Assembly: GCA_963730615.1 (NCBI GenBank)
Contig: CAVSSR010000010.1
Span: forward strand, 479 to 64,478
Source of the DNA: an uncultured Bacteroidales bacterium
Lineage (GTDB): Bacteria > Bacteroidota > Bacteroidia > Bacteroidales > VadinHA17
Reading direction: 5' to 3'
Length of the DNA stretch: 64,000 nucleotides
The notes beneath the pieces are model-generated. The model was not told the origin of the DNA and did no database searches. It saw nothing but the letters and a program-made list of their open reading frames with translations. Below are positions 1,709-33,152 of the stretch, one piece after another. Each line of letters opens with the position of its first letter. The stretch's first letter is position 1. The translations under genes were made by a program, and so were the position numbers.

Positions 1709-1715
1709 ATTATTA

Positions 1716-3573: not shown

Positions 3574-3626
3574 GGAAAATATTAATAACTGAAAAACAGA
3601 TCATTAAACAATTAAATACATAAATT

Positions 3627-4299: not shown

Positions 4300-4348
4300 T
4301 AATAACTAAGGTGAAACAATAAACTGACAATATAAATACTACAAGAAA

Positions 4349-5042
4349 ATGAAAACGAAATTATTAACTATATCTGCAATCCTTCTTTTTTCAACACTGG
4401 CTCTGCAGGCCCAGATTGGCTTCGGTCTTCTGGGGGGTGTGAATTTCCAGAATATAAACGGAAAAGAAAGTAATGGCGATAAACTCGAAAATGGTCTTTT
4501 GGTAGGGTTTCACGCCGGAGTAAATGCTAATATCCCGGTGGCACCTGACTTCTATTTTCAGCCCGGGCTTCTGTTCTCTGTAAAAGGCGCCAGGAATAAC
4601 TTCTTTAACATGCCTGTCAAAGCATCAGGATGACAATTATAATACAACCACAAAGATTTCCTATATCGAAATTCCCCTGAGCTTTCTGTACAGGCCACAG
4701 GTTGGAAACGGACATGTACTCCTCGGGTTTGGTCCTTATATTGCCTTTGGCATTGGCGGCAACCAGAAGTTTGAAAGCGGAACTCTGGCTTATGAACAAA
4801 AAATTGCCTTCAAAAACGAGATTACAGAGAGCGATTTTTTTGACCTGGATAATGCATATTTCAGGCGGTTTGATGCAGGGGCAAATATTTTCTTCGGCTA
4901 TGAAATACCGATGGGGGTATTCCTGCAGCTGAATGCGCAGCTGGGCATGCTTAAGATAAACCCTGTACATTCATGGGATAGCGGGGATGAGACCTCGTAC
5001 AAGAATACAGGTTACGGCCTTTCAATAGGATACCGTTTTTAG
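4349..5042 (+). CDS. Porin-family outer-membrane beta-barrel protein; frame broken once near 4626-4630
   Basis: ORF 4349..4633 has a signal peptide ending ALQAQ. It continues in another frame from 4629 as DDNYNTTTKISYIEIPLSFLYRP...GYGLSIGYRF*, with the stop at 5040-5042 and a typical terminal aromatic residue. The span of 694 nt is 3n+1; deleting one g of the gg at 4628-4629 restores the frame. Confidence 0.75.
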
Positions 5043-5065
5043 CAAGGACTTTATATATCAAAAGG

Positions 5066-5095
5066 GGCCGTCACTGCAAAGTGACGGCCTTTTTT
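5066..5095 (+). terminator. Rho-independent terminator after the porin-family gene
   Basis: Stem GGCCGTCAC / GTGACGGCC with loop TGCAAA, followed by a T6 run. Confidence 0.8.
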
Positions 5096-5133
5096 ATATA
5101 TGGTGAAACCTGATCCGTAGCAATCATTTTTCC

Positions 5134-5201
5134 ATATGTGAATTATGTAATTCTTTCGTTGAAAGATGTAACTCTTTTTTTGGGAACAGGGCTCATCTTT
5201 G
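5134..5201 (+). promoter_or_regulatory. Composite promoter module P3 (drives ORF 5248)
   Basis: ATATGTGAATTATGTAAT-N15-TGTAAC-N21-CATCTTTG. The box ends 46 nt before the start at 5248. Confidence 0.6.
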
Positions 5202-5247
5202 TTAAGGGAATTAGAGCAGAAGTCTACTTAAATAAAATACCTAACCA

Positions 5248-5667
5248 GTGGATGAAAAAAACGTTATAATAACGAATCAAAGTATTAGTACAAACCTGAA
5301 CATCACAATCCGGTCAAGAGATGGTTCATCAGAGACCGGCAAGGCTAATGATGCTTTGTTTGCCGAAGGGGGACTGAACTTTTATAATTATATCAGACGG
5401 CTTGGCCTTGAAAGCGATCCTGATATAGTTGTTATTTCTTCCCTGCGCCATTTTTATTATGACGCTGAAGAAATGATTAAAGTTAAAGCCCTTGTGAACC
5501 TGACGGAACTCAACCAGGTTAAGCGGATTGTGGATTTTCTGCATACATGCTATCAGATTATGCCACAGAAGAGTTATTTAATCGGGTGTTTCGTTGATAA
5601 TAAGAAGATCCCCAGATACAGATTAAGAAACAACTCCGCCTCAACATATGTTCAAGAAAGATTTTGA
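5248..5667 (+). CDS. Hypothetical protein (GTG start), possibly truncated by frame errors
   Basis: 139-aa ORF directly downstream of module P3. I recognise no family with confidence. Confidence 0.5.
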   Translation: MDEKNVIITNQSISTNLNITIRSRDGSSETGKANDALFAEGGLNFYNYIRRLGLESDPDIVVISSLRHFYYDAEEMIKVKALVNLTELNQVKRIVDFLHTCYQIMPQKSYLIGCFVDNKKIPRYRLRNNSASTYVQERF

Positions 5668-5726
5668 CCCTATAGAATAGTGGTATTGTTTCAGCTGTTC
5701 CGTTTATCAACAGGTTATACAGCATA

Positions 5727-5864
5727 ATGGATTCAAGGACCAATACCTTCATGTCAAAGAGCAGTATTTCTTTTCTGCTTGAAGATTACGGATTTAAGGT
5801 ACTGGACATGACCGAACAGGACGAACTGACTTATTTCCAGGCACAAAAAGCCCGGGCCGCTTAG
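5727..5864 (+). CDS. Short ORF, probably the displaced C-terminal part of the 5248 gene
   Basis: 45-aa ORF MDSRTNTFMSKSSISFLLEDYGFKVLDMTEQDELTYFQAQKARAA. The same frame is open from 5684. Two single-base corrections between about 5660 and 5685 would fuse it to ORF 5248. Confidence 0.3.
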   Translation: MDSRTNTFMSKSSISFLLEDYGFKVLDMTEQDELTYFQAQKARAA

Positions 5865-5904
5865 AATTCTGCAGCCCAGGCTAAAATCAACTGAATACTA
5901 TTAA

Positions 5905-6114
5905 TTACTTTTTAAAAGGAACCAATAACATGACTCCCCCAACCGCCATTACGGCAACGCCGATAAGTGGCGACCAGCTAACGTGGTGACGCTTGTTTGC
6001 GTTGATCTCTATGTTCCCTAAGTCAACCACTTTCTCTCTTGTAAAGTAAGTAACGGTCGTAAAAATGGTCAAAATCAGACCAAGGATTAAAATGATGATA
6101 CCAGGTTTTTTCAT
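5905..6114 (-). CDS. Small two-TM membrane protein (69 aa), hypothetical
   Basis: Two hydrophobic helices (GIIILILGLILTIFTTV and LIGVAVMAVGGVMLLV). It has its own module, P4, 50 nt upstream. Confidence 0.6.
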   Translation of the reverse strand: MKKPGIIILILGLILTIFTTVTYFTREKVVDLGNIEINANKRHHVSWSPLIGVAVMAVGGVMLLVPFKK

Positions 6115-6163
6115 TTGATTCGTTTTTATGGTTTATTTTGTAAAATCACACCAAATTATTTGA

Positions 6164-6232
6164 TAAAGGTAGGTGGAACAGATGCTGTCAGTGTTACACA
6201 ACTACTACAGATAATTACATAATTCACACATT
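6164..6232 (-). promoter_or_regulatory. Composite promoter module P4 (drives small membrane protein 5905..6114)
   Basis: AAATGTGTGAATTATGTAAT-N15-TGTAAC-N21-TACCTTTA. Its distal end abuts the stop codon (6233-6235) of the upstream transporter gene. Confidence 0.65.
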
Positions 6233-7354
6233 TCAGGTTTTGGTTTTACCGCCCCCGGGAGTGTGTTTTTTAAAAGGTAATTTGATCTTAAGAGGAGATG
6301 GCATGGTATCTCCTAACAGGAAGCCCCAGGGCTTCAGAGGTTCGACGTGGTCACAGACAAGTTTTACAATGGCCAGCAGCGGTATGGAGATAAACATTCC
6401 GGGAATACCCCATATGGCATTGCCAACAAAAACTACCAGGAGTGAGAACAGTGCATTGAGTTTTACTTTTGAAGCAACTATTTTGGGAACGATGAAATTG
6501 TTGTCAATAAGCTGGATGATATAGTAGATCACCATAACATAAACGGGGTACCATGCAGATTCTTTTGTGATCAGGGCGACGATCATCGGCAATGCTACCG
6601 CAACTAATCCTCCTATGTAAGGAATGATATTCAGCAATGCGCCGATAATACCGAGCAGCAGAGCATATTCAATCCCGAGAGCCAGAAGAGCAACGGTGTT
6701 CAATGCAGCTATTATGCCAGCCTCAATAATCAGCCCGATAAGATATCGCTGAATAACTGTCTTTGTCTGAGTAACTATCTCGCTCACTTTGCTCTGGTTT
6801 CCTGAACTAAATATTCTATGAATAAACTCGATCAGGATCGGATTGTAAAACAAGAGCATAAAGACGTAAACCGGGATTAAAAAAATCACCACTAACAGGT
6901 TGCCGAGGGAGACAAGGGTGTTTCCGATCACAGCGCTGCTGGAATTAATAAGTTCACCCCGGACTTTTATAATCCAGTCATTTAACTTGTGAGAGTTTAT
7001 ATCGAAGTGGCCGGAAACCCAGGCGATGGCCTGGTTGAGCATCTCGCTGAATTTGTCTGCCAGCATGGGCAATGAATCACTTAAACGGCTTGCCTGCGAA
7101 ATGATAAGCGCACCAAATGCTGCTATGACCAGAAAGGTCAGGAACAGTGTTATGATGATTGCTAAAACTCTGTTGACTTTTTTCTCTACAAAGAAGTTTA
7201 CAACCGGATGAAGTACTATGGCTAAAATGGTTGCAAAAACCACAGGTACAAGGATGCTCCTCGCAATGTACAGCATTGTCAACAGAACAGCTATCCCGAT
7301 TAATAAAATGCTTGCCTTTACATACGCCGGAAGTTTCAGCCCTTCATTTGTCAT
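6233..7354 (-). CDS. AI-2E family transporter (PerM-like permease)
   Basis: 373-aa polytopic membrane protein with the typical AI-2E/UPF0118 layout. Confidence 0.75.
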   Translation of the reverse strand: MTNEGLKLPAYVKASILLIGIAVLLTMLYIARSILVPVVFATILAIVLHPVVNFFVEKKVNRVLAIIITLFLTFLVIAAFGALIISQASRLSDSLPMLADKFSEMLNQAIAWVSGHFDINSHKLNDWIIKVRGELINSSSAVIGNTLVSLGNLLVVIFLIPVYVFMLLFYNPILIEFIHRIFSSGNQSKVSEIVTQTKTVIQRYLIGLIIEAGIIAALNTVALLALGIEYALLLGIIGALLNIIPYIGGLVAVALPMIVALITKESAWYPVYVMVIYYIIQLIDNNFIVPKIVASKVKLNALFSLLVVFVGNAIWGIPGMFISIPLLAIVKLVCDHVEPLKPWGFLLGDTMPSPLKIKLPFKKHTPGGGKTKT

Positions 7355-7400
7355 GGCACCTGGATTGAAGTGTCACGGCTTCCGGATTTCAACTCTTTTC

Positions 7401-7772
7401 TTACGGAAAATACGGAGAAGCATAACTTCTCCCAGTGACCTGAGATTGCCGGATTGCTTTAGAGACAAAGTTAGTAACGCCGAGCTGTAAAACAGGACTG
7501 AGAAGTTTTCCAAACCTCATTGCGGTCACTCCTGGCAGTATACTCCTTGAAAGATACCCGGCACCTAAACCAAGGGCCGTTCCAAGGATGTTTTCAATCA
7601 GATTTGGCGATGAAGAAATATCATGTAATGTACTGCGGAGCAGACTGGCTGGTTTGAAACTTTCATAGGTGTTAACGAATTGCTCTTTCAACAGCTTTCT
7701 GTTGGCAGCCTTCTCTGCTTCCAGTAATTGAATTGCTTCTTTAAGGCCGGCTGTTGAAGTTATGTTTTGCAT
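7401..7772 (-). CDS. Hypothetical protein, third gene of the YtxH/holin-like cluster
   Basis: I use the ATG at 7772 (MQNITSTAGLKEAIQLLEAEK...). The longer ORF-track start overlaps the upstream gene. Confidence 0.55.
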   Translation of the reverse strand: MQNITSTAGLKEAIQLLEAEKAANRKLLKEQFVNTYESFKPASLLRSTLHDISSSPNLIENILGTALGLGAGYLSRSILPGVTAMRFGKLLSPVLQLGVTNFVSKAIRQSQVTGRSYASPYFP

Positions 7773-7779
7773 ACTGATT

Positions 7780-8133
7780 TTATTTAAGCACATGCCTGAT
7801 AATGTAATTGCCGACCTGTCTTTTGAGCCATTTATGCATAAAGAGACGTAAAACAAGAGTTGTGATCCCATAAAAAGCAGCTACCGCAAAAAAACCATAA
7901 TAGATATTACCAAGGATACCTCCCAGCCAGAAGGCAATGCCCAGGTTGACAAAAAGCATAAAAATCAAGGCCAGGACAATCACGATAAGATGAGGCACGA
8001 CTGTAGAAACAGCGTCCGATGTTTTATCAAGGACTTTAAGTTTAGCCAACTGAAGTTCCGTCTTGCCGTATTCAGTAACTTTCTCCAGCAGCTCCTCTAT
8101 GACTTTTACATTGTCTTCCATGCCCCTGGTCAT
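7780..8133 (-). CDS. Holin-X / phage-holin-family-like membrane protein
   Basis: 117 aa with an N-terminal amphipathic segment and two TM helices. It sits in the usual position after a YtxH gene. Confidence 0.6.
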   Translation of the reverse strand: MTRGMEDNVKVIEELLEKVTEYGKTELQLAKLKVLDKTSDAVSTVVPHLIVIVLALIFMLFVNLGIAFWLGGILGNIYYGFFAVAAFYGITTLVLRLFMHKWLKRQVGNYIIRHVLK

Positions 8134-8170
8134 AATATCATTAGTGATGATCTTATCCCCCTGACGGTTA

Positions 8171-8449
8171 TCAACCCGGAGCAGTCTTTGCTTTTTTGTC
8201 AGCCTCGTCTTTTGTCGTCTTGCCCTTATCAGTAAGATCAGTAACCTCTTCCTTTACATTTTCATATTTTTCAGATATGTCATCAAGAAACTGGTTGAAT
8301 TTTTCTTTCATTGATTCCTTCAGGTCATTTCCTTCTCCGGATAGCTTTTTTCGTGTTTCCGAGCCCTTTTCCGGGGCAAACAGAATCCCTAACACTGCAC
8401 CGGCAGCGACTCCGGCCAATAATGCCAATACTACTTTTCCTGAGCTCAT
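8171..8449 (-). CDS. YtxH domain-containing protein
   Basis: N-terminus VVLALLAGVAAGAVLGILFAPEKGSETRKKL is the YtxH signature. The C-terminal part is charged and helical. Confidence 0.85.
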   Translation of the reverse strand: MSSGKVVLALLAGVAAGAVLGILFAPEKGSETRKKLSGEGNDLKESMKEKFNQFLDDISEKYENVKEEVTDLTDKGKTTKDEADKKAKTAPG

Positions 8450-8470
8450 GATTTCTTTAATTTAATAAGC

Positions 8471-8560
8471 CCGCCCCGGATTATCCTGTTTTAAACCCCT
8501 TATATACTGATCAGTTTGTATTTCAGGTAGATGAAATGACACAGGAATTTTCCGGGGCGG
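8471..8560 (-). other. About 90-nt extended hairpin between the lmo0937-like gene and the YtxH gene
   Basis: A 10-bp GC stem (CCGCCCCGGA at 8471-8480 pairs with TCCGGGGCGG at 8551-8560) extends through CCTGT(8485-8489)/ACAGG(8541-8545). An inner TTTCA/TGAAA helix is also possible. Confidence 0.5.
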
Positions 8561-8589
8561 ACTTAATGATTACTAATAAAATGCTGGAT

Positions 8590-8745
8590 CTAGAGGATTC
8601 TTCTCCCCTGGATAACTCTCACTAAAACTGCAATGACTGCAATGACAAGCAGGATGTGTATCAGACCTCCGACATGGAACCCGATAAAGCCTACTGCCCA
8701 TGCAATGATCAGTATTACCGCAACTACATAAAGTAAATCTCTCAT
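8590..8745 (-). CDS. lmo0937-family small membrane protein (51 aa)
   Basis: Below the ORF-track size cut-off. Hand translation gives MRDLLYVVAVILIIAWAVGFIGFHVGGLIHILLVIAVIAVLVRVIQGRRIL, which matches the typical lmo0937/DUF5670 pattern. Confidence 0.8.
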   Translation of the reverse strand: MRDLLYVVAVILIIAWAVGFIGFHVGGLIHILLVIAVIAVLVRVIQGRRIL

Positions 8746-8763
8746 GATTTTGTTTTTTAATTT

Positions 8764-9093
8764 TTACAACAGAACGATTAACAGAATAAGAATAATAAGC
8801 AGTACGGCTGCTGAAATGTAAATGCCGCCACTTACTGCCTTAAGTTCACTGCTTATTGAACGAACTTCTTTTCGCAGCTCTTTCTTTTCTGACGCGGTCA
8901 GATCAGACTTGTCCGACGTCTTAATTTCGTTCAGCCTGAGCAGTAATTCGTTAGCTTTAGCAGCATCTGCAGGGCTTACGGGATTGGTGTTAGCCAATGA
9001 GGAAGGCTCGGTTTTGGGTGCAGCGCTTAATGAAAGTGGGATAAATGTCAATGACAACAATGTCGCCATTAAACAAAGAGCAAACTTTTTCAT
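8764..9093 (-). CDS. Hypothetical secreted, C-terminally anchored protein
   Basis: Signal peptide ending SLSAAP, a charged helical middle region and a C-terminal TM helix (IYISAAVLLIILILLIVLL). It is the first gene after module P5. Confidence 0.6.
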   Translation of the reverse strand: MKKFALCLMATLLSLTFIPLSLSAAPKTEPSSLANTNPVSPADAAKANELLLRLNEIKTSDKSDLTASEKKELRKEVRSISSELKAVSGGIYISAAVLLIILILLIVLL

Positions 9094-9173
9094 GATACCT
9101 GATTTTTTTTAGTATGACTTAATAGTTATTAATAATATCAATCTTGCTTTTAGTAATTAAAAGATTACAATGG

Positions 9174-9243
9174 TAAAATTACACCACCTGGTCTGGAAAA
9201 TCGTTACATGATTTTGGGATATTAATTACATAATTCACACATT
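9174..9243 (-). promoter_or_regulatory. Composite promoter module P5 (drives 8764..9093, the lmo0937-like gene and probably YtxH through the AI-2E gene)
   Basis: GAATGTGTGAATTATGTAAT-N16-TGTAAC-N21-TAATTTTA. The box lies 81 nt before the ATG at 9093. Confidence 0.6.
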
Positions 9244-9290
9244 CCATGAAATGTCAGCTACGGAATGCATGAGACAATGAATAAGTGGTT

Positions 9291-11045
9291 TTATTGATCT
9301 CCAGCTCCTGAAGACCGGGCTTCAGCCAGTACGCTGATATCTGTCACAGCATCAAAGTAAGAAAGTCTCTTATTACAGATCAGCTTACTGCATCCTGTCA
9401 TATCCTCAAAGTAAAAAAGTGTTGGTTTTGTTGTCACCTCTATTCTTACTGAGACATTCTCTTCCTTGCAATAAAATTCGACAGGCATGCTGAAGCCCTC
9501 AGGAACGTTCAGCCATTTTGCCGCGATAACCGGTACGACCTTCCTGTCAGCCGTTGGGTTACCTTCATCTATACCGGCAGGGTCAAAATACCAGTAGAGA
9601 ACCGGAACCTCACGGCGATAAAGGTATGCTTCAAAGAATTTATCCCAGTCCTTACCTGTCTTCCGCTCAACAACCTCTATGAAATCGGCAGTTGTAACGT
9701 GCGATGATGCTGCATGCTCACGGTAGAAAGTCTGTAGAATATCAAAGAAAAGAGTGCTGTCATTCAGAACGTTACGTATTGTATGCAGCACCATGGCTCC
9801 TTTATTGTAAACATCATTGTCCCTGTTATTCCAGTAGCTGACATTCGCCGGACCTACAACCGGAAATTTATTCTTTATCGATCCGGCAATGAAGTACCTT
9901 GCATACAACAGTGAGTTGTCATATCCCATTTTATGTTCTGCAAAGAGCATTTCGGAATATGTGGCGAACCCCTCCTGCAGCCAGATATCGCCAAAATCGC
10001 TGACTGATACGGCATTACCCCACCATTCATGGGCGGCTTCATGGATGATTATATAGTCGCCTCCCAGCCAGGCCCTGTTTGAATAACCGCTTCCATAGGC
10101 TATGGCTGTCTGATGTTCCATTCCTTCAAACGGTGCCTCAACAAGCCGGAATCCCTCTTTAATCCATGGGTAGGGTCCGAAAGACCTGGCATAGAGGTTA
10201 ATTATATCCTTTACCTGAATAAATTGCTTTTTTGCTTTTTCAAGGTTTTGCGGCAGAACATAATAATCAAGGTTCAGGATGCCTTGCGGAGTGAGCATTG
10301 TGTCACTGAAATGTTCAAATTTCCCTGCATAGAAGGTAATATTGTAGATATTGACAGGGTAACTGGTGCTCCACGTAAATGTTTCACTCCCTGCATTTGA
10401 CGTATGGCTCTGCATCTTACCGTTTGAAACAACCTGCAATCCTGCCGGAACTGTCATGCGTAGCCTGACACTGTCGGGCTCATCGGAAAGATGGTCCTTG
10501 CACGGGAACCAGATGCTGCCTCCTTCAGTTTCGCATGTCACACCGATCCATGGGTTGTCATTCTCGTCTTTTTCCCACACCACACCGCCGCTCCATGGCG
10601 GATTTTTTGCCATTGTGGGTTTACCATAGTATTCGACGGTAATAATATAGTCCCGGCCAATAACCAATGGATCAGGAAGAGATGCAATCACTGCTCTGTC
10701 ATTTCGTGAAAAGGGGATCTCCTGTCCCGACATCTTCAGGCTGCTGATGTCAAGGTTTTCATAAAGGTCAATGCGGATTTTGCTAAGTTCTGCCTGTGCT
10801 TTGAAATGGATATTTACCACACCCCCAAGCTTTTTATTATCCGGATCAAGGTTAAGGTCGAGATCATAAAAAGTTACATCATAGCCGGCGCGATCTTCAT
10901 CAAGCTTCCCGATCAGGTAATCCTTTTCCGTAAACTTCGGGTAGCTGCCGGGGTTTTTGGGGACCTTGCCAAATTCCGGGAACCGGATAATAGCGCAACT
11001 GTTGAGTAAGAGGAACGCAAGGAGAATGAACAAAAGTCTTTTCAT
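9291..11045 (-). CDS. M1-family metallopeptidase (aminopeptidase N-like)
   Basis: Zinc motif HEAAHEWWGN followed by WLQEGFATY, plus a signal peptide with a Cys. Confidence 0.85.
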   Translation of the reverse strand: MKRLLFILLAFLLLNSCAIIRFPEFGKVPKNPGSYPKFTEKDYLIGKLDEDRAGYDVTFYDLDLNLDPDNKKLGGVVNIHFKAQAELSKIRIDLYENLDISSLKMSGQEIPFSRNDRAVIASLPDPLVIGRDYIITVEYYGKPTMAKNPPWSGGVVWEKDENDNPWIGVTCETEGGSIWFPCKDHLSDEPDSVRLRMTVPAGLQVVSNGKMQSHTSNAGSETFTWSTSYPVNIYNITFYAGKFEHFSDTMLTPQGILNLDYYVLPQNLEKAKKQFIQVKDIINLYARSFGPYPWIKEGFRLVEAPFEGMEHQTAIAYGSGYSNRAWLGGDYIIIHEAAHEWWGNAVSVSDFGDIWLQEGFATYSEMLFAEHKMGYDNSLLYARYFIAGSIKNKFPVVGPANVSYWNNRDNDVYNKGAMVLHTIRNVLNDSTLFFDILQTFYREHAASSHVTTADFIEVVERKTGKDWDKFFEAYLYRREVPVLYWYFDPAGIDEGNPTADRKVVPVIAAKWLNVPEGFSMPVEFYCKEENVSVRIEVTTKPTLFYFEDMTGCSKLICNKRLSYFDAVTDISVLAEARSSGAGDQ

Positions 11046-11051
11046 TGTAAT

Positions 11052-11765
11052 TCAAGCGGTTGCCTTCTTTTGCTTTAGTTTTTGTTTTAATGCAGTTTCG
11101 ACCAGCTTATGTTTGGCGATTTCATTCACCAGTTTTTTATTGGTTTTCTTTAATTTATTTATTTCTACTTCAAGATCAATCTTTTTATCAATAAGTTGCA
11201 TGCGCAAACGCTGTATTACATCTAATTTCTTTTCCAATAAGAGGGATAATTCAAGAAGCTTTTTTTCTTCCTTCTTCATTTCTGATATGTCAGTTGCTAC
11301 AAGTATGCAATAATCACCTTGCAGATAAGCAGGTAAAAGCTGAATGGATAGTTTCAGATATAATGAGTTGATCAGGGATACTATCAGAACATTATTTTTA
11401 TTATCAGTCTGTTGAGCAAGCAATTTATCAAATTTTGATTTATCATTCGGAACGATGAAACGCTTAAAGTATGAACCAATCACACGCTCAATTGGTTCGT
11501 GCACAAGTTCAGCAAATCTCTGATTACAATAGATAATTATACCTTCTCTGGAAAGAGTAACTGCTCCTTCGTTCATTTCTTCTATGAAAGTACGATATGG
11601 TGTTTCAGCAGAACTGATTGAATAGACTTGTTCTCCTTTCGTACCAGAAACCACAATCGCATCCACTTCACCGCTTCGAATTGCTGAAAGCGTTTCTTCA
11701 GTTTCAGCCAGGCGGGAATGTAATTCTTCATTCTCAATAATGAGTTGTTCTTTTGTTTTGGTCAT
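11052..11765 (-). CDS. PAS-domain protein flanked by coiled coils, with no recognisable output domain
   Basis: N-terminal coiled coil, a PAS-like core (EGAVTLSREGIIIYCNQRFAELV...) and a long Lys/Leu-rich C-terminal coiled coil. It is the last gene of the kai cluster. Confidence 0.7.
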   Translation of the reverse strand: MTKTKEQLIIENEELHSRLAETEETLSAIRSGEVDAIVVSGTKGEQVYSISSAETPYRTFIEEMNEGAVTLSREGIIIYCNQRFAELVHEPIERVIGSYFKRFIVPNDKSKFDKLLAQQTDNKNNVLIVSLINSLYLKLSIQLLPAYLQGDYCILVATDISEMKKEEKKLLELSLLLEKKLDVIQRLRMQLIDKKIDLEVEINKLKKTNKKLVNEIAKHKLVETALKQKLKQKKATA

Positions 11766-11810
11766 TGACGTTATTATAATAAATCAAATGTGCTAAAATT
11801 CCTGAAAATC

Positions 11811-12164
11811 TTACAGGTCTTTTACCTTTTTCAGGTCTAATCCCATAAGTACTTTTTCTTTGTTTGACATATCGCCAATAATACGACGGAATGGAAGCGG
11901 CAGTTTTTTAATCAATGTCGGGGCTGCAATTATCTGTTCATCTTTTGCCAAACTTGGCATTTGATACAGGTCAATCACTTCCAGTTCGTATCGCCCTTCA
12001 AGATATTCTTCGCAAATCTTTTTCAGGTTCGTAATGGCTAAGACCGATCGACTCGTTGTACCGGTTATGTATAAACGCAAAATATATTTGTCCTTGCCCG
12101 ATTCAGACATTGTCAGATCAAACTCTTTTGTTGATCCTTTTACTTTTGTTTTTTTCTCTTTCAT
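11811..12164 (-). CDS. kaiB: KaiB-family protein with Lys-rich N-terminal extension
   Basis: [74 protein letters not shown] is a clear KaiB pattern. Confidence 0.9.
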
Positions 12165-12195
12165 AATTATGACTGATAAATATTGTATTTATAAA

Positions 12196-12462
12196 TCAGC
12201 TGACAGGCAATAAATCCAATCCGACAAGAACACGTTCTGTATCTGAGAGATCACCTATTATCTTACGAACAGGTACCGGCAATTTTCTTACTAATGTTGG
12301 TAAGGCAAGAATCTGGTCCTCGTTACCCAACTGTGGATTTATCAAAAGGTCAATTACTTCAATGGAGTATTTCCCTTCTAATTGTTCTTCACATATTTTT
12401 TTCAGATTTGCAAATGCAGTAAGGGCTTTTGGAGATTGTCCTGCAACATATAAACGAAGCAC
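12196..12462 (-). CDS. kaiB: KaiB-family protein (GTG start as given; true start possibly the ATG at 12538, reached through a frame error)
   Basis: [72 protein letters not shown]. Confidence 0.9.
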
Positions 12463-12585
12463 CCACTTATCATTTGCCGTTATTAACCGGTTTTTCTTTT
12501 TTAATTTTTTTATCTGAATTTTCTTTCTTTGGTTTCATCGGATACTCGTTTTAATTATTTTTTCAATTTGCTGGTTGTACTATTT

Positions 12586-14290
12586 TTAATGATCAGCTTT
12601 TCTGCTTACTGCCATTTCTATTTTATCCTGTTCCAGTCGTTTAATCATGTCTTGTTCTGTTTCTATCATTTTAACAGCTTCGGATTCTTCCGACTCAAAA
12701 TCGGCATGCAATGAAGCAATCTGAGCTTCTAATGCCTTGCGTTTTCGTTCTAGTTCACGTTTTTTTCGTTCAATATCCTGCTTACGCGTCAACACTTCGG
12801 CATTTTCAAGAGCTTCCTGTGCAATACGGGCTGAGCCGGTTAAAACTCCACTGGCACCAATATAAACCTCACGTAATTCTACACCGTGGTCAGTTAAAAT
12901 GAATTCGCGAATCTGGTTAGAGTTAGCCATTCCGCGCGATTTAAGAACATACATTCCCCTGTTTCGTTCACCGTTTAATTCTATATCACGAAGTAATAAC
13001 CAGGTATCTATCAGTGATGATATTCCGACATCAGAACTCTCCAATGCGCTTTCGGTTGAAGTCAGGCTGGTAAACAATGCTGTTATTTGATTCGACTTAA
13101 GAAAATCGACAATACGCATTAACATCGTTTTTACTTCGATCTCTTTATCACCAATGACGAAAGTATTTATTGGATCCAGAATAACAATATCAGGTTTGAA
13201 AGCATTTACAGCTTTGTGAGTTACAGCCAGATGCATTTCCAGACCATAAAATGTTGGCCGGGTTGCCTGGAATTGTAAAAGTCCTTTCTGCACCCAGGGC
13301 TCTAATTTTATACCGATGGAAAGCATATTACGCATTAAGCTGGTTTGGAGATTCTTCGAAACAGAAATAAAGAACACGTTCACCTCTTTTACATGCTGCT
13401 TCTGCAAAGTGAGCTGCAACACTTGTTTTTCCTACTCCGGCAGTACCGGAAACAAGTACAGTGCTGCCGCGGTAATAACCTTTTCCTTCAAGCATTTTAT
13501 CAAGTGCAGTTATACCACTTGAGATTCTTTTGTTTGATACAATATGTTCTAATCCTAAGGAAGTTACAGGTAATACTGAAAAACCATTTTCATCAATCAG
13601 AAACGGATACTCATTGGTACCGTGCATTGAACCACGGTACTTTACAACCCGTAAACGACGTGTGGAAGTCTGTTCGGTTACACGATGGTCGAGCATAATA
13701 ACACAATCTGAAACATATTCTTCCAAACCCTGCCTGGTAAGAGTTTCTTCTCCACGCTCACCTGTTATGATTGCAGTAACACCTTTTTCTTTTAACCAGC
13801 GAAATAACCGCCGCAGTTCAGCGCGTAGGATCAGTTGGTTTGGCAATCCGGCAAACAGTGATTCAATAGTGTCCAAAACAACACGCTTTGCTCCAATAGA
13901 ATCAATTGCATAATCAAGGCGTATGAATAAACCTTCCAGATCGTATTCACCGGTTTCTTCTATTTCACTGCGCTCAATATGAACATGGTCAAGTGCAATT
14001 TTTTTATTTTTAATAAGGTCTTCCAGATCAAAACCCAGTGAAGCAACATTTTTGATTAATTCTTCATTGGTTTCTTCGAATGACATAAATACACCCGGTT
14101 CGTTAAACTGAGTTGCACCACGTACAAGAAACTCCATTCCAAAAAGTGTCTTTCCGCATCCTGCACCACCACATACGAGGGTTGGTCTGCCTGCTGGTAA
14201 TCCACCGCCTGTTATTTCATCAAATCCCTGAATTCCGGTGGGAGACTTGAGAAGATTTTTATTTACTGGTTTACGGTCTGCTTTTTTCAT
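12586..14290 (-). CDS. kaiC: KaiC-family double-domain ATPase with C-terminal coiled-coil tail; frame broken once near 13335
   Basis: ORFs 13328..14290 and 12586..13422 join as ...FEESPNQL|MRNMLSIGIKLEP... Walker A motifs: GGAGCGKT in the CI half and GTAGVGKT in the CII half. The span of 1705 nt is 3n+1; removing one t of the tt at 13335-13336 restores the frame. Confidence 0.9.
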
Positions 14291-14465
14291 TGATTATCAA
14301 TTAAATAAAGTCATATCAGATTATAGGCGATATGTTGCTAAACAACAAGTACTTAATTCCGGCCTTTTCTGGTCAGTATGATCCTCCAACCCTGGTCAAA
14401 GTCAATTATAATTCTGATCAGTCTTGTATTGTTAAAAAGCCAGACTACCCAGGTTAAACCTGACA

Positions 14466-14609
14466 CTAGGCTAATTTATAAATCAAATAAATAATAGAAC
14501 CCAATACTAAACATACGCACATTGAAAGGCTGTAGGCCATCAAAATGGCATATTTTAGCTTTGATCTGGCTTTCAAGTCCTCAGTAAATAAATCATCCCT
14601 TGTTTTCAT
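14466..14609 (-). CDS. Small membrane protein (47 aa), first cistron downstream of module P6
   Basis: Below the ORF-track cut-off. Base-by-base hand translation gives MKTRDDLFTEDLKARSKLKYAILMAYSLSMCVCLVLGSIIYLIYKLA with a TAG stop at 14466-14468. The ATG lies 44 nt after the -7 box, in the same range as the other modules. Confidence 0.5.
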   Translation of the reverse strand: MKTRDDLFTEDLKARSKLKYAILMAYSLSMCVCLVLGSIIYLIYKLA

Positions 14610-14652
14610 GATGATGGACAAAAACGGTTTAAAGTGATTCCAAATTACAATA

Positions 14653-14721
14653 CAAAGTTGAAATCCTTTACTCTGAGAAACTTTACAAAATTTCAGGAAA
14701 AAGTTACATCATTCACACATC
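14653..14721 (-). promoter_or_regulatory. Composite promoter module P6 (drives the small ORF and probably kaiC-kaiB-kaiB-PAS-M1 peptidase)
   Basis: AGATGTGTGAATGATGTAAC-N15-TGTAAA-N21-CAACTTTG. The distal end overlaps the stop codon (14713-14715) of the AraC-family gene. Confidence 0.6.
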
Positions 14722-15273
14722 TTCCAGAGCCCGGGGTTTTTTGTTCTTCAGTTTTTTAAACTGGGACGGAGTAAGCCCTGTCATTTTCCTGAACTGGTTT
14801 GAAAGGTGGGCTACACTGCTGTAGTGCAGTTTCCAGGCTATTTCGGTGAGATTAAGTTCATCATATATTAGCAGTTCCTTTACCTTTTCGATTTTGTGCG
14901 CCAGGTAAAACTTCTCAATGGTAACCCCCTTTACTTCTGAAAAAAGATTTCCCAGATAGGTGTAATTGTGATTGAGTTTTTGGCTCAGGTGGTCGGAAAG
15001 GTTTATTTTGATCTGCTCATCGGTATTATGCACCAGGTCAATGATGACTGCTTTTATTCTTTCAACCAGGATGTTCTTTTTGTCCTGCATCAGTTCAAGC
15101 CCGGTCTTTTTAAGTGCAATTGCGAGGTTTTCGCGCTGCTCCGGTGAAATATCCTCCGTTATTTCAGCTTCGCACAATTCAACTGATCCATAATGCAAAC
15201 CCGCCTTTTCCAGCTCCGATTTTACCAGCATTATGCAACGGAGGCTGACCATATTTTTGATGTAGAGTTTCAA
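14713..15273 (-). CDS. AraC-family transcriptional regulator
   Basis: C-terminal HTH region LTEIAWKLHYSSVAHLSNQFRKMTGLTPSQFKK, with a small N-terminal alpha/beta domain. Confidence 0.85.
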   Translation of the reverse strand: MKLYIKNMVSLRCIMLVKSELEKAGLHYGSVELCEAEITEDISPEQRENLAIALKKTGLELMQDKKNILVERIKAVIIDLVHNTDEQIKINLSDHLSQKLNHNYTYLGNLFSEVKGVTIEKFYLAHKIEKVKELLIYDELNLTEIAWKLHYSSVAHLSNQFRKMTGLTPSQFKKLKNKKPRALEDV

Positions 15274-15304
15274 TATGCCGGGTATACAGGGATAGTTACT
15301 TCTT

Positions 15305-15334
15305 CAAATTTAAGATTTTTTCTGAAAGACCAAA
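15305..15334 (-). promoter_or_regulatory. Canonical Bacteroidota sigma-A-type promoter of the AraC-family gene
   Basis: On the minus strand, TAAATTTG (plus-strand CAAATTTA at 15305-15312) lies 31 nt before the ATG. A TTTG (plus-strand CAAA at 15331-15334) lies 18 nt upstream. There is no TGTGAAT/TGTAAC module here. Confidence 0.4.
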
Positions 15335-15695
15335 GGCCGCTTGCCAGCCCCTGATCCAAAAATCCAGGATAGAAGCTTCCATGCACACCAGAATTATAAC
15401 ACCTATGTTCCCGCTATGTTTCTGACTTTAATAAAAATCGTATCCGATAACTCGATGATTGAGCCATACAGCCGCGCACTTCCCATGAGGTCCTGAGCCG
15501 CAAACAGAAATGTCCGGCGTAAGGATTTAAAAGCTGTAAAAATTCCTCCAAAAGAGAGAGTTATAACTTCTGTCTTCAGGAGGAACTACAAAGTCGATCT
15601 GTCATATGGTGTTGATATACCACCCGGGGAAAAAGATATCCTCGTTCTGGCAGGAAAGTTTAATGATATAAAAAATTCAGCGAAAGCTAGGGCTT

Positions 15696-16271
15696 TCAGA
15701 GTACTACCCTTGTATTATGGCCAAAAAGGTAAAACAGGCCAAACTGAATTCCCCTGTTGGTTGATTTTACTTCACTGCTTTTATTTATATCGTTTAATCC
15801 GTGATTATATCTCAGATCAAGACCAAACCCCGTTGAAGGAACCACATAGCTGACACCAACACTTAATGCAAAGTCAATGGGGTTATAATCATTCTCATTG
15901 TCTGAACTGACCAGGAAACCTACCTGTGGTCCGGCCTGTATTCTGAATCCGTTGTCAAACATATATTGAATCAGGACAGGTATATTAATATAACCCAGAT
16001 TATAATTTTTTGCACCCTGGGCGGAATATACAAGTTCAGGCTGAATTGCCCACTGACTGTTGCGGTGGATATGGCCAAGCAAACCAAAATTATAACCTGT
16101 TCTCTGGTCATAACTGGTATTGTTGTCATTGTGAATGTTATAAAAATTCAGCCCGCCCTTAATTCCAAGGGTTACGTGTCCTGCAGGTGCATTGCCGTGC
16201 TGTGCACTGACAACACCCGTTATCATAATTGCTGTAATTAATCCGATCAGAAATTTCATAGCTTTTTTCAT
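15696..16271 (-). CDS. Porin-family outer-membrane beta-barrel protein
   Basis: Signal peptide MKKAMKFLIGLITAIMITGVVSAQ, beta-strand-rich sequence and a C-terminal ...FGLFYLF-type motif. The ORF-track start at 16325 lies too close to the -7 box of P7, so I use the ATG at 16271. Confidence 0.75.
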   Translation of the reverse strand: MKKAMKFLIGLITAIMITGVVSAQHGNAPAGHVTLGIKGGLNFYNIHNDNNTSYDQRTGYNFGLLGHIHRNSQWAIQPELVYSAQGAKNYNLGYINIPVLIQYMFDNGFRIQAGPQVGFLVSSDNENDYNPIDFALSVGVSYVVPSTGFGLDLRYNHGLNDINKSSEVKSTNRGIQFGLFYLFGHNTRVVL

Positions 16272-16328
16272 TTGTTTATTATTAGTTTTCGATATCACCT
16301 TTTTCATTAAGGAGCTTATAATCAACTG

Positions 16329-16397
16329 TAAAGGTGCGGGTTATTTATTGACGGAATGTTACATAATTGTATATACTTATTACATAATTCACGGATC
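16329..16397 (-). promoter_or_regulatory. Composite promoter module P7 (drives porin-family gene 15696..16271)
   Basis: GATCCGTGAATTATGTAAT-N15-TGTAAC-N21-CACCTTTA. It is back-to-back with P8. Confidence 0.6.
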
Positions 16398-16417
16398 AGA
16401 ATGGGATTGAAGAAAGT

Positions 16418-16484
16418 CCTGTGAATTATGTAATTATGTTGATGAAAAGTGTAACGGTTCCGCTGGCTTAGCTGCCTACCTTTG
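16418..16484 (+). promoter_or_regulatory. Composite promoter module P8 (drives small membrane protein 16550..16774)
   Basis: CCTGTGAATTATGTAAT-N15-TGTAAC-N21-TACCTTTG. The box ends 65 nt before the ATG at 16550. Confidence 0.6.
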
Positions 16485-16549
16485 CTTTGTTGAAGGGCAC
16501 CTCCCGCAATAACAATTAATGCAAAAAATAAACTTATAAGGAGAAAATC

Positions 16550-16774
16550 ATGAGCACAAGAAGAGACAGAAGAATAATCTACTATTTAATTGCAGCTGCA
16601 GTTATTATTATTGCCTTCCTGTTTGTTAGGCGGTGCATCCTGGATGAAAGGGATGGGACATGGCAACGGTTCAATGGGTACGGTCAGTTTACACTGGGGA
16701 CAGATTCTGATCAGCCTGGGTCTGGGGTTTCTGCTCGGGTGGATAGTCTCCAAAAGGAAATGGTGATTGTCTGA
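16550..16774 (+). CDS. Small single-TM membrane protein (74 aa), hypothetical
   Basis: MSTRRDRRIIYYLIAAAVIIIAFLFVRR..., with its own module P8. Confidence 0.55.
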   Translation: MSTRRDRRIIYYLIAAAVIIIAFLFVRRCILDERDGTWQRFNGYGQFTLGTDSDQPGSGVSARVDSLQKEMVIV

Positions 16775-16787
16775 TTACCTTCAGACT

Positions 16788-18413
16788 TCAAATGGGCAGG
16801 TCTTTAAAAATTACTTCAGACCTGCCAATCGAGTCTTCCATTTTCTTATTGCCGTCAGCCAGGGTTGAAGTAATTCCTGAAAGAATAGATCTGAAGCAGT
16901 AATGCAAAACAGATCTTTCAGGGTCTCTTATATAATCTATTGTACCCTCTCTGACGTCTCCCCCCTGTACAGGGTTTGAATCTGGTATTCTTCTGTTAGC
17001 TATATAAGAGACAAATCTTTCTCTGAATGCTGTTGTATCATCAGTCTGTTTGTTCTTAACAGCGATGTCCAGTCCATGATAAAGCATGATCATTTTGCCT
17101 GTTGCCTTGTCATTATTTGCAATGAAGCTGAAACTCAATGCATCGATTTTGCCGGAAGTGGCATAAATAAAGGCATTTTTCTCAAGGATTGGATTTAACT
17201 CAGTAACGTTCAGGCCTGATAGAGTTCCTTCAAGTGAAAATATATTATTACTGTCAAATATTCTCTCTTTTAAATGAACGGCCATCTTTCCTTTGCCCAT
17301 TAACAGGGCATCAGCCTTGATTTCTAAAAAACCTTTTTCTGTTTTGTAGCTGGTGTCATTTGTTAATTTGTAAAGGCTGGCATTGATTTCATTAAATCTT
17401 ACAATTCCTGGCTCGTTTGCCTCTTCAGCATGTACTGTAAAAGTTACATTCCCTTTCATAAGAATTATTGAATCAATCAGGAAGTTGTGGGGAAAGTCGT
17501 AAAGGATATCCTGAAAGGCGGGTTTATTCAAATGCCGGAACTCTTCTCTCTTATCACGAAAAACTTTCATGTCCATTTGCCCGATCTCTATATACGGACT
17601 TCTGAGGCTCATTGATCTGAGATAAGCTTCGGAATCGAAATCGTAAACATAAATGTCGGTTAAGGCAACTTCGATACGGTTCGTTTGGAATGCATGTCTC
17701 GATGTGAAATCATAGTTTGTGTAATTCGGGCGAACAAAAAGGCTGTCTATGAACAAAGTGTTCACATTGGCAGGATAGCTGACCCCCTTTACCACATAAG
17801 AATACATTTTGTCAGACGAAACCAGCATGAGTTCCCGGGCTTTGAAATCAAACAGCTTAATGGTACCGGGGAGTAAAGTATCCATCTTCCCGACCTGCAA
17901 ATCGTATACTTTCAGCATCCCATCCTTTACTGAATAAGTCTGCCCCGTTGAATCGTCTTCCAATTCCAGGTTCAGTTTATCAAACAGGATTCTGCCTATG
18001 CCAAGACTTATGGGTGAAACTACCGGTTGTGTTGCTCTGCCCGAAAATGGAAATTTACCGTTAATAATGCTATTGGAAAAGTTTACTTTATTAATATAAA
18101 TATCATGTTTAAATATTGCTCTGGGGAGGTTGATGCCTGTCAACTTTACAGACGCTATCTCACCGATTAAATCGCGGTCTACTCCATTCTCCGGATTTGA
18201 AAATATTGTCATTCCTGTCAGTTTTATCCCTGACTTGATAATCAAAATATTAACCTTATCTATTTCAACGATGTAATTTCTTGCTTCTTTATTCAATTCT
18301 GACCGTATTTTTCCCCCGATCCAGGGCTCAATAAAAATTCTGGTTATAATTTCTACCAGCAACAAAAGAGTACACGCTGCAACAAATATTTTTAAAATTA
18401 TTTTCTTCCGCAT
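16788..18413 (-). CDS. Large membrane-anchored hypothetical protein (possibly AsmA/DUF748-like)
   Basis: 541 aa with an N-terminal TM anchor followed by a beta-rich region. The family assignment is only an impression from the N-terminal region. Confidence 0.5.
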   Translation of the reverse strand: MRKKIILKIFVAACTLLLLVEIITRIFIEPWIGGKIRSELNKEARNYIVEIDKVNILIIKSGIKLTGMTIFSNPENGVDRDLIGEIASVKLTGINLPRAIFKHDIYINKVNFSNSIINGKFPFSGRATQPVVSPISLGIGRILFDKLNLELEDDSTGQTYSVKDGMLKVYDLQVGKMDTLLPGTIKLFDFKARELMLVSSDKMYSYVVKGVSYPANVNTLFIDSLFVRPNYTNYDFTSRHAFQTNRIEVALTDIYVYDFDSEAYLRSMSLRSPYIEIGQMDMKVFRDKREEFRHLNKPAFQDILYDFPHNFLIDSIILMKGNVTFTVHAEEANEPGIVRFNEINASLYKLTNDTSYKTEKGFLEIKADALLMGKGKMAVHLKERIFDSNNIFSLEGTLSGLNVTELNPILEKNAFIYATSGKIDALSFSFIANNDKATGKMIMLYHGLDIAVKNKQTDDTTAFRERFVSYIANRRIPDSNPVQGGDVREGTIDYIRDPERSVLHYCFRSILSGITSTLADGNKKMEDSIGRSEVIFKDLPI

Positions 18414-18436
18414 GATATGGCATTATAGTCAGAGGT

Positions 18437-18504
18437 CAAAACTATTACACCCTGACTTCAAAACTTTACACAATTCAATAAATGATTTACATCATTCACG
18501 CATT
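18437..18504 (-). promoter_or_regulatory. Composite promoter module P9 (drives 16788..18413)
   Basis: TAATGCGTGAATGATGTAAA-N15-TGTAAA-N20-TAGTTTTG. The box lies 24 nt before the ATG at 18413. Confidence 0.55.
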
Positions 18505-18699
18505 AGCCGGGCAACGAACCGGGCCGAACGTTAAGTCCCGAAATGGTATGTCGGGATAGGGGGAAGCCAGACTGCTGTGACGGATGAAAGACATGATATA
18601 TATCACAGGGACACAGCGGATGTACATTTTTTCCTGAAAATCCTTAACTTCACGGCCTGATTAAGGTAGATCGGACTTTTCTTTACTAAATATTTTATC

Positions 18700-21600
18700 A
18701 TGGCTAATACAAAAGCTTCTCCTGACGTTTCAGGTCAGTCATTTTATATCGGACTTGACATCGGATCAGTTTCTCTCAATACGGTTTTGCTGGATGATAA
18801 CTATAACATCATTGAAGATTACTATGACTACGTTCATGGTAAGCCTTTCAATATGCTCTATGACAGGTTCTCATCCATTCTGAAAAAATACCCCTCGGCC
18901 ACTGTAAAGGGTATTGCCCTGACAGGTACAGGCGGTAAGCTTGCAGCAGGACTAATCGGTGGCGTATTTGTAAATGAGATCATTGCACAGGCAACCTCTG
19001 CAGGCAGGCTCTATCCTGATGCCCGTACAGTCATTGAGATCGGGGGCGAAGATTCCAAACTGATCACTCTGGAGAAGAATCCTGAGGATGATCACGCCAG
19101 GCTCGTTGACTTTGAGATGAACAGCATATGTGCCGCAGGTACCGGGTCATTCCTTGATCAGCAGGCAAAAAGAATAGGTGTCCCTATCGAGAAGGAATTC
19201 GGTGAGATGGCTATGAAATCGGTCAACCCGCCGCGCATTGCAGGCAGATGCAGCGTGTTCGCCAAGAGCGACATGATACATCACCAGCAGTTAGCCACCC
19301 CGCTGCATGATATCGTGGCAGGACTGTGTTTTGCGCTTGCACGTAACTTTCGGAGCACTGTTGCCCGCAGCAAGGAGATAAAGAAACCTGTCATCTTCTC
19401 AGGAGGCGTGGCAGCAAATATAGGCATGATAAGAGCATTCAGGGAAGTGCTTGACCTTAAAGGAGATGAGCTTATTATTCCTGCTCATCATGCGTCAATG
19501 GGCGCCATCGGGGCTGTGATGTACAGCCACACCGGCAATCTGGAGATGAAAGAATTCAAAGGCCTTGAAGAGCTTCAGGCTTACCTGAAAAAGCACGCAT
19601 CTAAATTTGTCAGCCTGCCACAGCTCATCGAATCTGAAGCAGTTTACAACAAGGAAATAAAATTCCACAAGAACGGAACCGACAAACTGCCGGTTTACCT
19701 TGGCATCGATGTAGGCTCACTGAGCACCAACGTTGTTCTGATTGACAAAAAGCATAATGTAGTTGCCAGGCGTTACCTCCCGACAGCCGGCAAGCCGCTG
19801 GAAGCCATACAGAAAGGGATGACGGAGATTTATGACGAGATTGGCGAGCATGTGGAGGTCATCGGTGCAGGCACAACCGGGTCCGGCCGTTACCTGACCG
19901 GGGACTTCATTGGTGCAGATACAATCCAGAATGAAATAACGGCGCAGGCAACCGCCGCAATAGACTATGATCCCACTGTTGATACAATATTTGAGATCGG
20001 CGGACAGGATTCAAAATATATAAGCATCGAAAACGGTGTGGTGGTCGACTTCGAGATGAACAAAGTCTGCGCCGCCGGCACAGGATCATTCCTCGAGGAA
20101 CAGGCTGAAAAACTCAACATCAGGATTGTTGAGCAGTTCGGGAACATGGCCCTTAAGTCAGAGAGTCCCGTCAAGCTCGGTGACCGTTGCACGGTGTTCA
20201 TGGAATCAGACCTGAACTCCTTCATGCAGAAAGGCGCCAAAAACGACAATCTCGTCGGTGGACTGGCCTATTCAATCGTTTACAATTATATGCAGAAAGT
20301 TGTTGCTGACCGGAAAGTCGGCAACAAGATCTTTTTCCAGGGAGGTGTTACAAACAATAAGGCTGTGGTGGCCGCATTCGAGCAGGTGACAGGAAAAAAG
20401 ATCACGATACCGCCGCATTTTGACGTCACCGGTGCAATAGGCGCAGCCATTCTTGCCCAGAGATCGATGAAAGAAGATCAGAAAACCACATTCAAGGGCT
20501 TTGGCGTACGCAATGTGACGTATGAGATGACCAGGTTCGTCTGCAAGAGCTGCGTCAACAATTGCGAAATAAGCAGGATAAATATTACCGGTGAAAAGAA
20601 ATCCCTGTACTACGGCGGACGCTGTGAAAAATATGAGACTGACGGCCGCAAGAAGAATACCGGACACATACCAAATCTCTTCAGTAAGAGACTTGAAATG
20701 CTCAGGGGCGATTTTTCGGAGACACCGGCAAACGGAAAAACAACCATCGGCATTCCCAGGGCTCTGATGATTTACTACCAGCAGTTCCCGTTCTGGAGGA
20801 CCTTCTTCCAGGAGCTTGGATTTAACGTGGTCGTTTCAAGGGAATCCGATAAGGCACTGGTTTCACGTTCAATTGAAACCATCTCCTCAGAGACATGTCT
20901 CCCTGTTGAGCTGATGCACGGTCACGTGATCGATCTCCTCGAGAAAAATGTCGATTATGTATTCATGCCGTTCATTGTGAACGGAAAATACCGCGAGGGA
21001 GACACAACCTCCAATACCAACTGCCCATGGATACAGTCATTTCCGTTCATGGTCAGGGCTGCCCTCAAGGGTAAGGTCGACGAATCAAAATTCCTCACTC
21101 CCACCCTCCACTTCAGGTACTTCGAGCGCGCACTGGTGAAGGAACTCTCAGCTTTTTTCAATGAGAAGTTCGGATTAAAAAAAGAAGATATAAAGAACGC
21201 CATCTATAAGGCTGACAGCGTCCAGGTCTCATTTGAAAAGGGTCTTGTTGAATACGGCAGGGAAGCGCTTAAGAATATCCCGGAAAACTGCCGCCCTGTA
21301 GTTATCCTCGGAAGGCCTTATAACAGTGCCGATCCGCACCTTAACCTTGATCTGACTGAAAAATTGCTTGTGCAGGATGTCATGCCCATCCCGCTTGACA
21401 TGCTTGACCTGTCATCATACAAGATCTACGGAAATTACAGGAACATGTACTGGCCAAACGGTCAGAAGATGATTGCTGCCGCACAGCATGTGGCTAAAAC
21501 AGACGGTTTATATGCAGTCTATATCAGTAATTTCAGGTGCGGTCCTGATTCATTTATATGGCATTACGTCACCGAAGAGCTGAAAGGCAAGCCCTTCCTG

Positions 21601-28853: not shown

Positions 28854-33152
<4,299 letters not shown>

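Follow-up and report, generated by a model that had tools for sequence, protein, structure and literature searches.

At the Pm promoter, XylS uses two direct-repeat sites of ~15 bp that lie 21 bp apart, the proximal one over the -35 position. The I1-I2 sites of AraC at araBAD follow the same plan, in which each ~15-bp repeat is made up of two sub-boxes and the proximal site replaces the -35/-33 element. These regulators, like RhaS/RhaR and MelR, carry a C-terminal AraC domain with two helix-turn-helix (HTH) motifs. Here we describe a locus of comparable layout in an uncultured Bacteroidales bacterium, represented by the metagenome-assembled genome (MAG) G000 (2.98 Mb, 14 contigs, 47% G+C; other G-numbers denote the genomes compared with it). 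It lies in a stretch of 64,000 nt on contig C10 (C10:479-64478; GenBank assembly GCA_963730615.1, contig CAVSSR010000010.1), referred to throughout as the window. Nine copies of a promoter module (P1-P9) are spread over an island at window 3379-18505, and a gene for a 186-aa AraC-family protein, P0001, is embedded among them (Table 1). We propose that this protein is probably the cognate activator of the module, as the original prediction had put forward; comparative genomics supports the candidacy through tests that agree with one another, all of them indirect. P0001 is the candidate because it belongs to the only family found recurrently beside the modules that has a DNA-binding domain, because a paralogue heads an operon that looks autoregulatory and because the geometry of the sites fits.

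What the locus shares with XylS/Pm and AraC I1-I2 is the C-terminal domain of the protein and the form of the sites, to which binding is predicted. It differs from both in the N-terminus, where a 62-residue HMA-like ferredoxin fold stands in place of their cupin/jelly-roll effector and dimerisation domain, in its promoters, which are of the -33/-7 type used by Bacteroidota sigma-A, and in its candidate target, a multi-operon envelope/stress regulon rather than a catabolic operon. The DNA-binding domain also superposes on those of the class II activators MarA, SoxS and Rob, which govern many-promoter stress regulons as P0001 is predicted to do; MarA and SoxS, however, lack an additional domain and recognize one asymmetric box as monomers, whereas here there are two phased repeats (three in some lineages) and an N-terminal domain. 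In the hybrid two-component systems of Bacteroides and in YesN-type regulators an AraC-type output is joined to a histidine kinase-receiver pair. The same components occur together in at least seven of the genomes compared here, and the best PDB sequence matches of P0001 are output domains of the YesN/AraT type, but kinase, receiver and AraC protein are separate in these genomes and an HMA-like domain takes the place of the receiver. The metallochaperones CopZ, Atx1 and GolB have the same fold as the N-terminus, and their MxCxxC loop is found in 38/44 close homologues, whereas the G000 copy reads MVSLRC and keeps only Cys13. A search of the literature for the motif, for the HMA-AraC architecture or for a general stress regulator of Bacteroidota yielded nothing relevant.

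Read in the orientation of the gene that follows, the nine modules all fit the consensus aATGTGTGAATnATGTAAY-N15-TGTAAC-N22-AyCTTTG. The original prediction had described direct repeats of TGTAA[T/C] with a start-to-start distance of 21 bp (22 bp in P5). Repeats and spacing are borne out: TGTAAY-N15-TGTAAY occurs six times in the window where 0.03 occurrences are expected, none of 100 shuffles reached six, a seventh pair with 22-bp spacing is present in P5 (9203-9230), and P6 (14682-14708, proximal TGTAAA) and P9 are recovered once one mismatch is permitted. The repeat unit itself had been drawn too short; it extends over ~14 bp, (G/C)TGAAnTnnTGTAAC, with a period of 21 bp, and a conserved AATGT precedes its distal copy. 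In a position weight matrix (PWM) made from 55 sites in many genomes (-7 box left out of scoring), information is confined to three places, namely the distal block, the proximal block (aAATTrTGTAAC plus acTTt) and the -7 box, AyCTTTG, which begins 22 nt past the proximal TGTAAC; across the intervening 22-nt spacer the information content is about 0. TTTG is absent at the -33 distance from every module, so the proximal repeat takes the -33 position, as had been claimed, and the -7 box is weakened at its first position. The arrangement is that of class II activation, the proximal predicted activator site overlapping the -35/-33 position of a promoter without that element, and the candidate sites have the AraC/XylS form of an asymmetric 14-bp unit in direct repeats with a 21-bp period. 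The modules are not restricted to the island: the PWM finds five more elsewhere in G000, each with a correctly spaced -7 box. In two families, a third, weaker or degenerate repeat (CTGAATTTATGTACT-like) in the 21-bp phase overlaps the spacer ahead of the -7 box (G045:C45 1011-1066; G057:C38).

P0001 consists of an HMA-like domain (residues 1-62), a linker helix (65-82) and an AraC domain with two HTH motifs (~88-177). Its assignment to the AraC/XylS family is upheld by Pfam matches to HTH_18 (E=5.2e-17; 62.4 bits against a cut-off of 33.6) and HTH_AraC (E=2.9e-7). Profile matches in the PDB are to AraC-type DNA-binding domains such as those of YesN, XylR and SoxS, with residues 77-176 covering the full length of SoxS. 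The AlphaFold model (pLDDT 88.7) contains a seven-helix AraC domain, and Foldseek places its C-terminal part with the DNA-binding domains of AraT, AraC, MarA, SoxS, Rob and AdpA, with target TM-scores of 0.71-0.80 for MarA, SoxS, AraC and AdpA. The recognition helices, YTYLaNLFSEV and YSSVAHLSNQFKK, are near-invariant across ~15 families and in both gene arrangements described below. The N-terminal part of the model (pLDDT about 90) has the DSSP elements E2-6, H11-23, E28-32, E35-38, H44-56 and E60-62, the beta-alpha-beta-beta-alpha-beta ferredoxin-like order of an HMA fold, and Foldseek pairs it with CopZ-, Atx1- and GolB-like chains at target TM-scores of 0.62-0.69 and weak E-values of 0.1-0.2. 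The Pfam HMA model gave no score on the protein. As the loop of the protein departs from MxCxxC, we term the domain HMA-like and do not class it as a metal-binding HMA domain. Close homologues mostly read MVCIRC at this loop, the first cysteine being the one kept in the 38, and only Cys13 is invariant.

The gene appears to form a transcription unit of its own. Its housekeeping-type promoter had been singled out as the only canonical one on the island and is indeed the sole intergenic one of two full -33/-7 matches in window 1-20000 (15334-15305, minus strand), the other (11081-11115, plus strand) overlapping a minus-strand PAS open reading frame (ORF) at 11052-11765. A terminator-like hairpin downstream of the porin gene separates the regulator unit from P7, and the 345-bp gap upstream of the promoter showed no significant RNA structure (z = -1.15). 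At the other end, the TGA stop codon (14715-14713) falls inside the GTGAAT box of P6, an overlap already pointed out in the original prediction, and the interval between stop codon and P6 leaves no space for a terminator. The TTG start is common to many orthologues (including those of G017, G273, G388, G104, G435, G070 and G039), which suggests a conserved low translation of the regulator.

Among ORF clusters built from all ORFs of ~40 module loci in 25 genomes, AraC is the most recurrent family near the modules and the sole one with a DNA-binding domain. The recurrent cargo comprises OmpA-like, porin, YtxH, holin-X-like, lmo0937-like, MlaEFD, CsbD-like and universal stress proteins (USP), an AI-2E transporter, a 116-aa protein, a glycosyltransferase and a kinase plus receiver; no metal transport genes lie in the regulon. 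The regulator gene and the module are physically linked in two ways. In type A, the stop codon of the regulator is embedded in the distal box of the module that follows (G000, G017, G023, G142, G402, G110, G240, G211 and G273), and the P6-type arrangement of G000 recurs in G017. In type B, a module immediately precedes the gene of an AraC paralogue, behind which lie genes for a PAS hybrid histidine kinase (HisKA, HATPase, REC and Hpt domains) and then for a single-domain receiver (G045, G104, G435, G070 and G211), the kinase and receiver being the recurrent ones mentioned above. The same AraC-kinase-receiver order is found in G054 and G039, where no module exceeds the scan threshold, so that the operon is present in seven genomes of different families (e.g. 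G045:C45 1304-4635). It suggests a split phosphorelay that may feed an AraC output without a receiver domain of its own. G000 carries the stand-alone AraC copy only.

Module and regulator also co-occur across genomes. We scanned 401 genomes of the order (237 genera), a sample of 61 close relatives and, from elsewhere in the phylum, 240 genomes of other orders and classes. The strict motif, a 35-nt pattern, was present in 21/61 close relatives, in 70/401 genomes of the order (57/237 genera) and in 6/240 genomes outside it, and its reversed version, used as a control, had no match anywhere. Within the order, 204/401 genomes have a homologue of the regulator at E<=1e-10 and 93/401 a close one at E<=1e-60. 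When the motif scan and the protein search are collated, a homologue is found in 68 of the 70 motif-positive genomes and a close homologue in 62, as against 136 and 31, respectively, of the 331 motif-negative genomes. Twelve of these 31 were fetched, and in 11 of them relaxed modules, with a proximal box that is mostly TATAAT or TACAAT, touch the AraC gene. The gene is present in every motif-positive genome assembled in 10 contigs or fewer (G093, G214, G229, G290, G309, G312, G332, G412, G005, G008, G016 and G018). Outside the order, all five motif-positive genomes tested have a homologue; the modules are close to an AraC gene in G437 and G505, in the latter upstream of AraC genes, and on the same contig in G520.

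Several observations weigh against P0001 as the activator. A cargo gene (window 7401-7871) is present in 18/61 relatives, and 17 of the 18 carriers are motif-positive; since a gene of this kind has the same presence pattern, co-occurrence shows one shared unit and not which of its members regulates, and the entire unit would be gained and lost together. Five MAGs (G006, G026, G030, G094 and G075) keep modules without a homologue of HMA-AraC. Three of these, G006, G026 and G030, belong to one genus, are 92-98% complete and have 6, 3 and 10 modules, respectively, ahead of the same regulon genes (lipoproteins, a CsbD-like protein, MlaE, YtxH, porins and a membrane peptide). Protein, profile and Pfam HTH_18 searches did not find HMA-AraC in them; the 12.5-kb kai-AraC block of G017 has no DNA match in G030 and marginal ones in G006 and G026, and beside the gene conserved at window 18700 none of the three has an island. 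G094 and G075, from other families, likewise have no homologue. The modules of G006, G026 and G030 have kept their core positions although roughly half of the 22-nt spacer sequence has changed, which requires a trans-acting factor in these genomes; the possibility that the modules are relics was rejected on the same grounds. A second factor that recognizes the module could explain these exceptions, and no transcription factor was seen among the module-driven genes of the three genomes. The idea that the HMA-like domain senses metal is also weak here, the G000 copy having SxxC where the family has CxxC.

These exceptions are partly mitigated by the state of the assemblies. All five are fragmented (70-210 contigs), and contigs G030:C58 and G006:C9 terminate inside modules, although an assembly artefact as the cause of the missing AraC gene in G030 and G006 is only suggested by this. 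G010, a very close relative with 10 modules and 20 contigs, looks like a sixth exception but owes this to a gap in its assembly: contig C6 of this genome opens at window ~28290, G010:C6:1-4911 is 96% identical to window 28290-33200, and the assembly is without the 28 kb to the left, which hold the island and conserved core genes that all other relatives have. In fragmented MAGs contig ends often lie within ~250 nt of a module (G030:C58 start, G006:C9:97, both ends of G045:C377, G364:C52, G292:C261, G236:C131 and G169:C124). Regulon regions seem to be hard to assemble or strain-variable, which would bias presence/absence calls of the short AraC gene.

One explanation for the five exceptions, and for the cargo gene sharing the presence pattern of the regulator, is that a LytTR or OmpR/PhoB response regulator encoded elsewhere activates the modules, with HMA-AraC a member or modulator of the regulon. 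The original prediction had kept a regulator encoded elsewhere in reserve, and that caveat holds: G000 itself encodes seven LytTR-type and five OmpR-type regulators, and the AraC-less genomes have them too. LytTR regulators such as AgrA, ComE and PlnC classically bind a pair of direct repeats, 21 bp in period and placed shortly ahead of a weak -35 element; the modules match this period. The hallmarks of a LytTR promoter, which are a linked LytTR gene and 9-bp direct repeats with a 12-bp spacer, are nevertheless missing: no LytTR or OmpR gene recurs near the modules in about 25 genomes, the recurrent receivers are single-domain proteins with no DNA-binding output, encoded in the same operon as the AraC paralogue, the module repeat is unlike the LytTR consensus, and its two-part unit of 14 bp is closer to what one AraC monomer would cover than to the 9 bp of a LytTR site. 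Counts of LytTR and OmpR genes are similar in genomes with and without AraC and so do not discriminate. We consider a response regulator of this kind unlikely. That an alternative or extracytoplasmic function (ECF) sigma factor instead uses the module as its promoter and TGTAAC as the -35 element is in our opinion very improbable. TGTAAC does contain the AAC typical of ECF -35 elements, but these are followed at 16-17 nt by a conserved, CGT-like -10 element, and nothing is conserved at that distance from TGTAAC in a spacer with almost no information; the sole downstream element, AyCTTTG at 22 nt, has the -7 geometry of sigma-A. A sigma factor would have no need of a second identical copy 21 bp upstream, and no sigma factor gene recurs near the modules. 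The low rating that the original prediction gave to an ECF factor is therefore sustained.

Another possibility is that HMA-AraC does bind the modules and that its main effect there is repression, anti-activation or fine-tuning, with RNA polymerase alone or another factor providing basal activity. A protein bound at the third repeat of G045 and G057, in the interval from the -33 position to the -7 box, would block polymerase, the distal site of P6 overlies the 3' end of the regulator's own gene, and modules persist in genomes where HMA-AraC was not found. However, a module that has no -33 element and a -7 box weakened at its first position is typical of activator-dependent promoters, the module upstream of the AraC-kinase-receiver operon fits positive autoregulation, and most AraC/XylS proteins that use direct repeats overlapping -35 are activators. 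We rate a predominantly negative role as improbable, and the assignment of P0001 as activator remains the one we prefer.

If P0001 is the activator, the following mechanism may be envisaged from the sequence and the protein model. The regulator would be held at a low constitutive level by its own housekeeping-type promoter and its TTG start. Two protomers would occupy the two ~14-bp direct repeats, whose centres lie ~20 and ~41 bp ahead of where the -7 box begins and where the 21-bp spacing would bring them to the same face of the helix; TGAA and TGTAAC would be the sub-sites read by the two HTH motifs of each protomer. Standing in for the -33 contact, the proximal protomer would recruit sigma-A RNA polymerase to the AyCTTTG -7 box, a case of class II activation. 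The HMA-like domain, in which Cys13 alone is invariant, is likely to provide a control or dimerisation surface. In type B lineages, the paralogue, encoded with the PAS hybrid kinase and the receiver in a module-driven operon, could give rise to positive feedback. Read-through from the regulator's promoter into P6 may set a basal level of the kai operon.

Table 1. Promoter modules and regulator features in G000. Coordinates refer to the window unless a contig is named; the PWM score is given where available.
Feature	Coordinates	Strand	PWM score	Description
P1	3379..3451	-	51.0	upstream of mlaE/F/D-like genes
P2	3504..3576	+	56.4	upstream of OmpA-like lipoprotein, porin-like barrel
P3	5132..5204	+	40.5	upstream of 139-aa gene at 5248
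P4	6161..6233	-	47.4	upstream of 69-aa membrane protein
P5	9171..9244	-		22-bp spacing; downstream genes: 109-aa protein, lmo0937-like, YtxH, holin-X-like, 156-aa protein, AI-2E transporter
P6	14650..14722	-	52.2	distal box GTGAAT 14716-14711; repeats TGTAAC (14708-14703) and TGTAAA (14687-14682); -7 box AACTTTG; downstream order: 47-51-aa membrane peptide, kaiC, kaiB, kaiB, PAS protein, M1 peptidase
P7	16326..16398	-	38.7	upstream of porin-family gene 15696-16325
P8	16415..16487	+	28.8	upstream of 74-aa gene at 16550
P9	18433..18505	-	46.5	TGTAAA repeats, -7 box TAGTTTTG; upstream of 541-aa gene 16788-18413
Regulator gene P0001	14713..15273	-		HMA-like/AraC regulator, 186 aa; TTG start (15271-15273)
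Housekeeping promoter of P0001	15305..15334	-		TTTG-N18-TAAATTTG, canonical Bacteroidota type; ends 31 nt upstream of start codon
Terminator-like hairpin	15681..15698	-		3' of porin gene
Extra-island module	C6:4207-4279	+		
Extra-island module	C6:9529-9601	+		
Extra-island module	C14:345441-345513	+		
Extra-island module	C9:217565-217637	-		
Extra-island module	C5:127152-127224	-		

The five extra-island modules lie ahead of genes for a 192-aa protein and an M48-type peptidase, for an L,D-transpeptidase-like protein, for another copy of the small membrane peptide, for a cupin-like protein of 152 aa and for an OmpA-related lipoprotein of 394 aa. The membrane peptide, of ~50 aa and conserved, is the first gene behind a module in several species, including genomes without AraC or kai; its sites are at window 14466-14621 (minus strand), on C14 of G000 after 345513, on G030:C1 after 161521 and on G006:C18 after 35256. 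A CheB-CheR fusion of 979 aa, which also contains PAS domains and a coiled coil, adjoins a divergent pair of modules that serve OmpA/porin and M48 peptidase genes (positions 2952-5891 of locus L028, on G030:C58; also in G017 and G047). Three genes of the window, kaiC (12586-14290), OmpA-like (3627-4299) and porin-like (4349-5042), are split into overlapping ORFs of different frames and are intact in relatives (KaiC of 578 aa in G017; OmpA-like protein of 227 aa and porin of 230 aa in G030), which looks like the result of indel errors in the assembly.

To our knowledge, no general stress system of the RpoS, SigB or EcfG type has been described in Bacteroidota. Perhaps a general envelope and stress response of many Bacteroidales and of other classes of Bacteroidota has the HMA-like/AraC protein as its master activator. 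A partner protein, or thiol, redox or metal chemistry at Cys13, would then act on the HMA-like domain as the switch, amplification in many lineages would come from a module-driven paralogue with a PAS hybrid kinase-receiver phosphorelay, and in G000 the protein would also drive a KaiA-less kaiC-kaiB-kaiB cluster; we offer this wider scheme tentatively, as a possibility that we would not yet call probable. The analysis defines a candidate regulon of Mla-like lipid transport, OmpA- and porin-like, YtxH, lmo0937-like and CsbD-like proteins, an AI-2E transporter, universal stress proteins and KaiBC, and pairs one small regulator with one promoter module of 70 bp in a precise form that can be tested. 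The 57 carrier genera include closed genomes, probably of isolates, in which genetics should be feasible; the closed genome G214, for instance, has 11 strict modules. If the assignment is true, the HMA-like domain would represent a new type of sensor domain in the AraC family, and the regulator and its module would provide a portable inducible promoter/activator pair for Bacteroidota.

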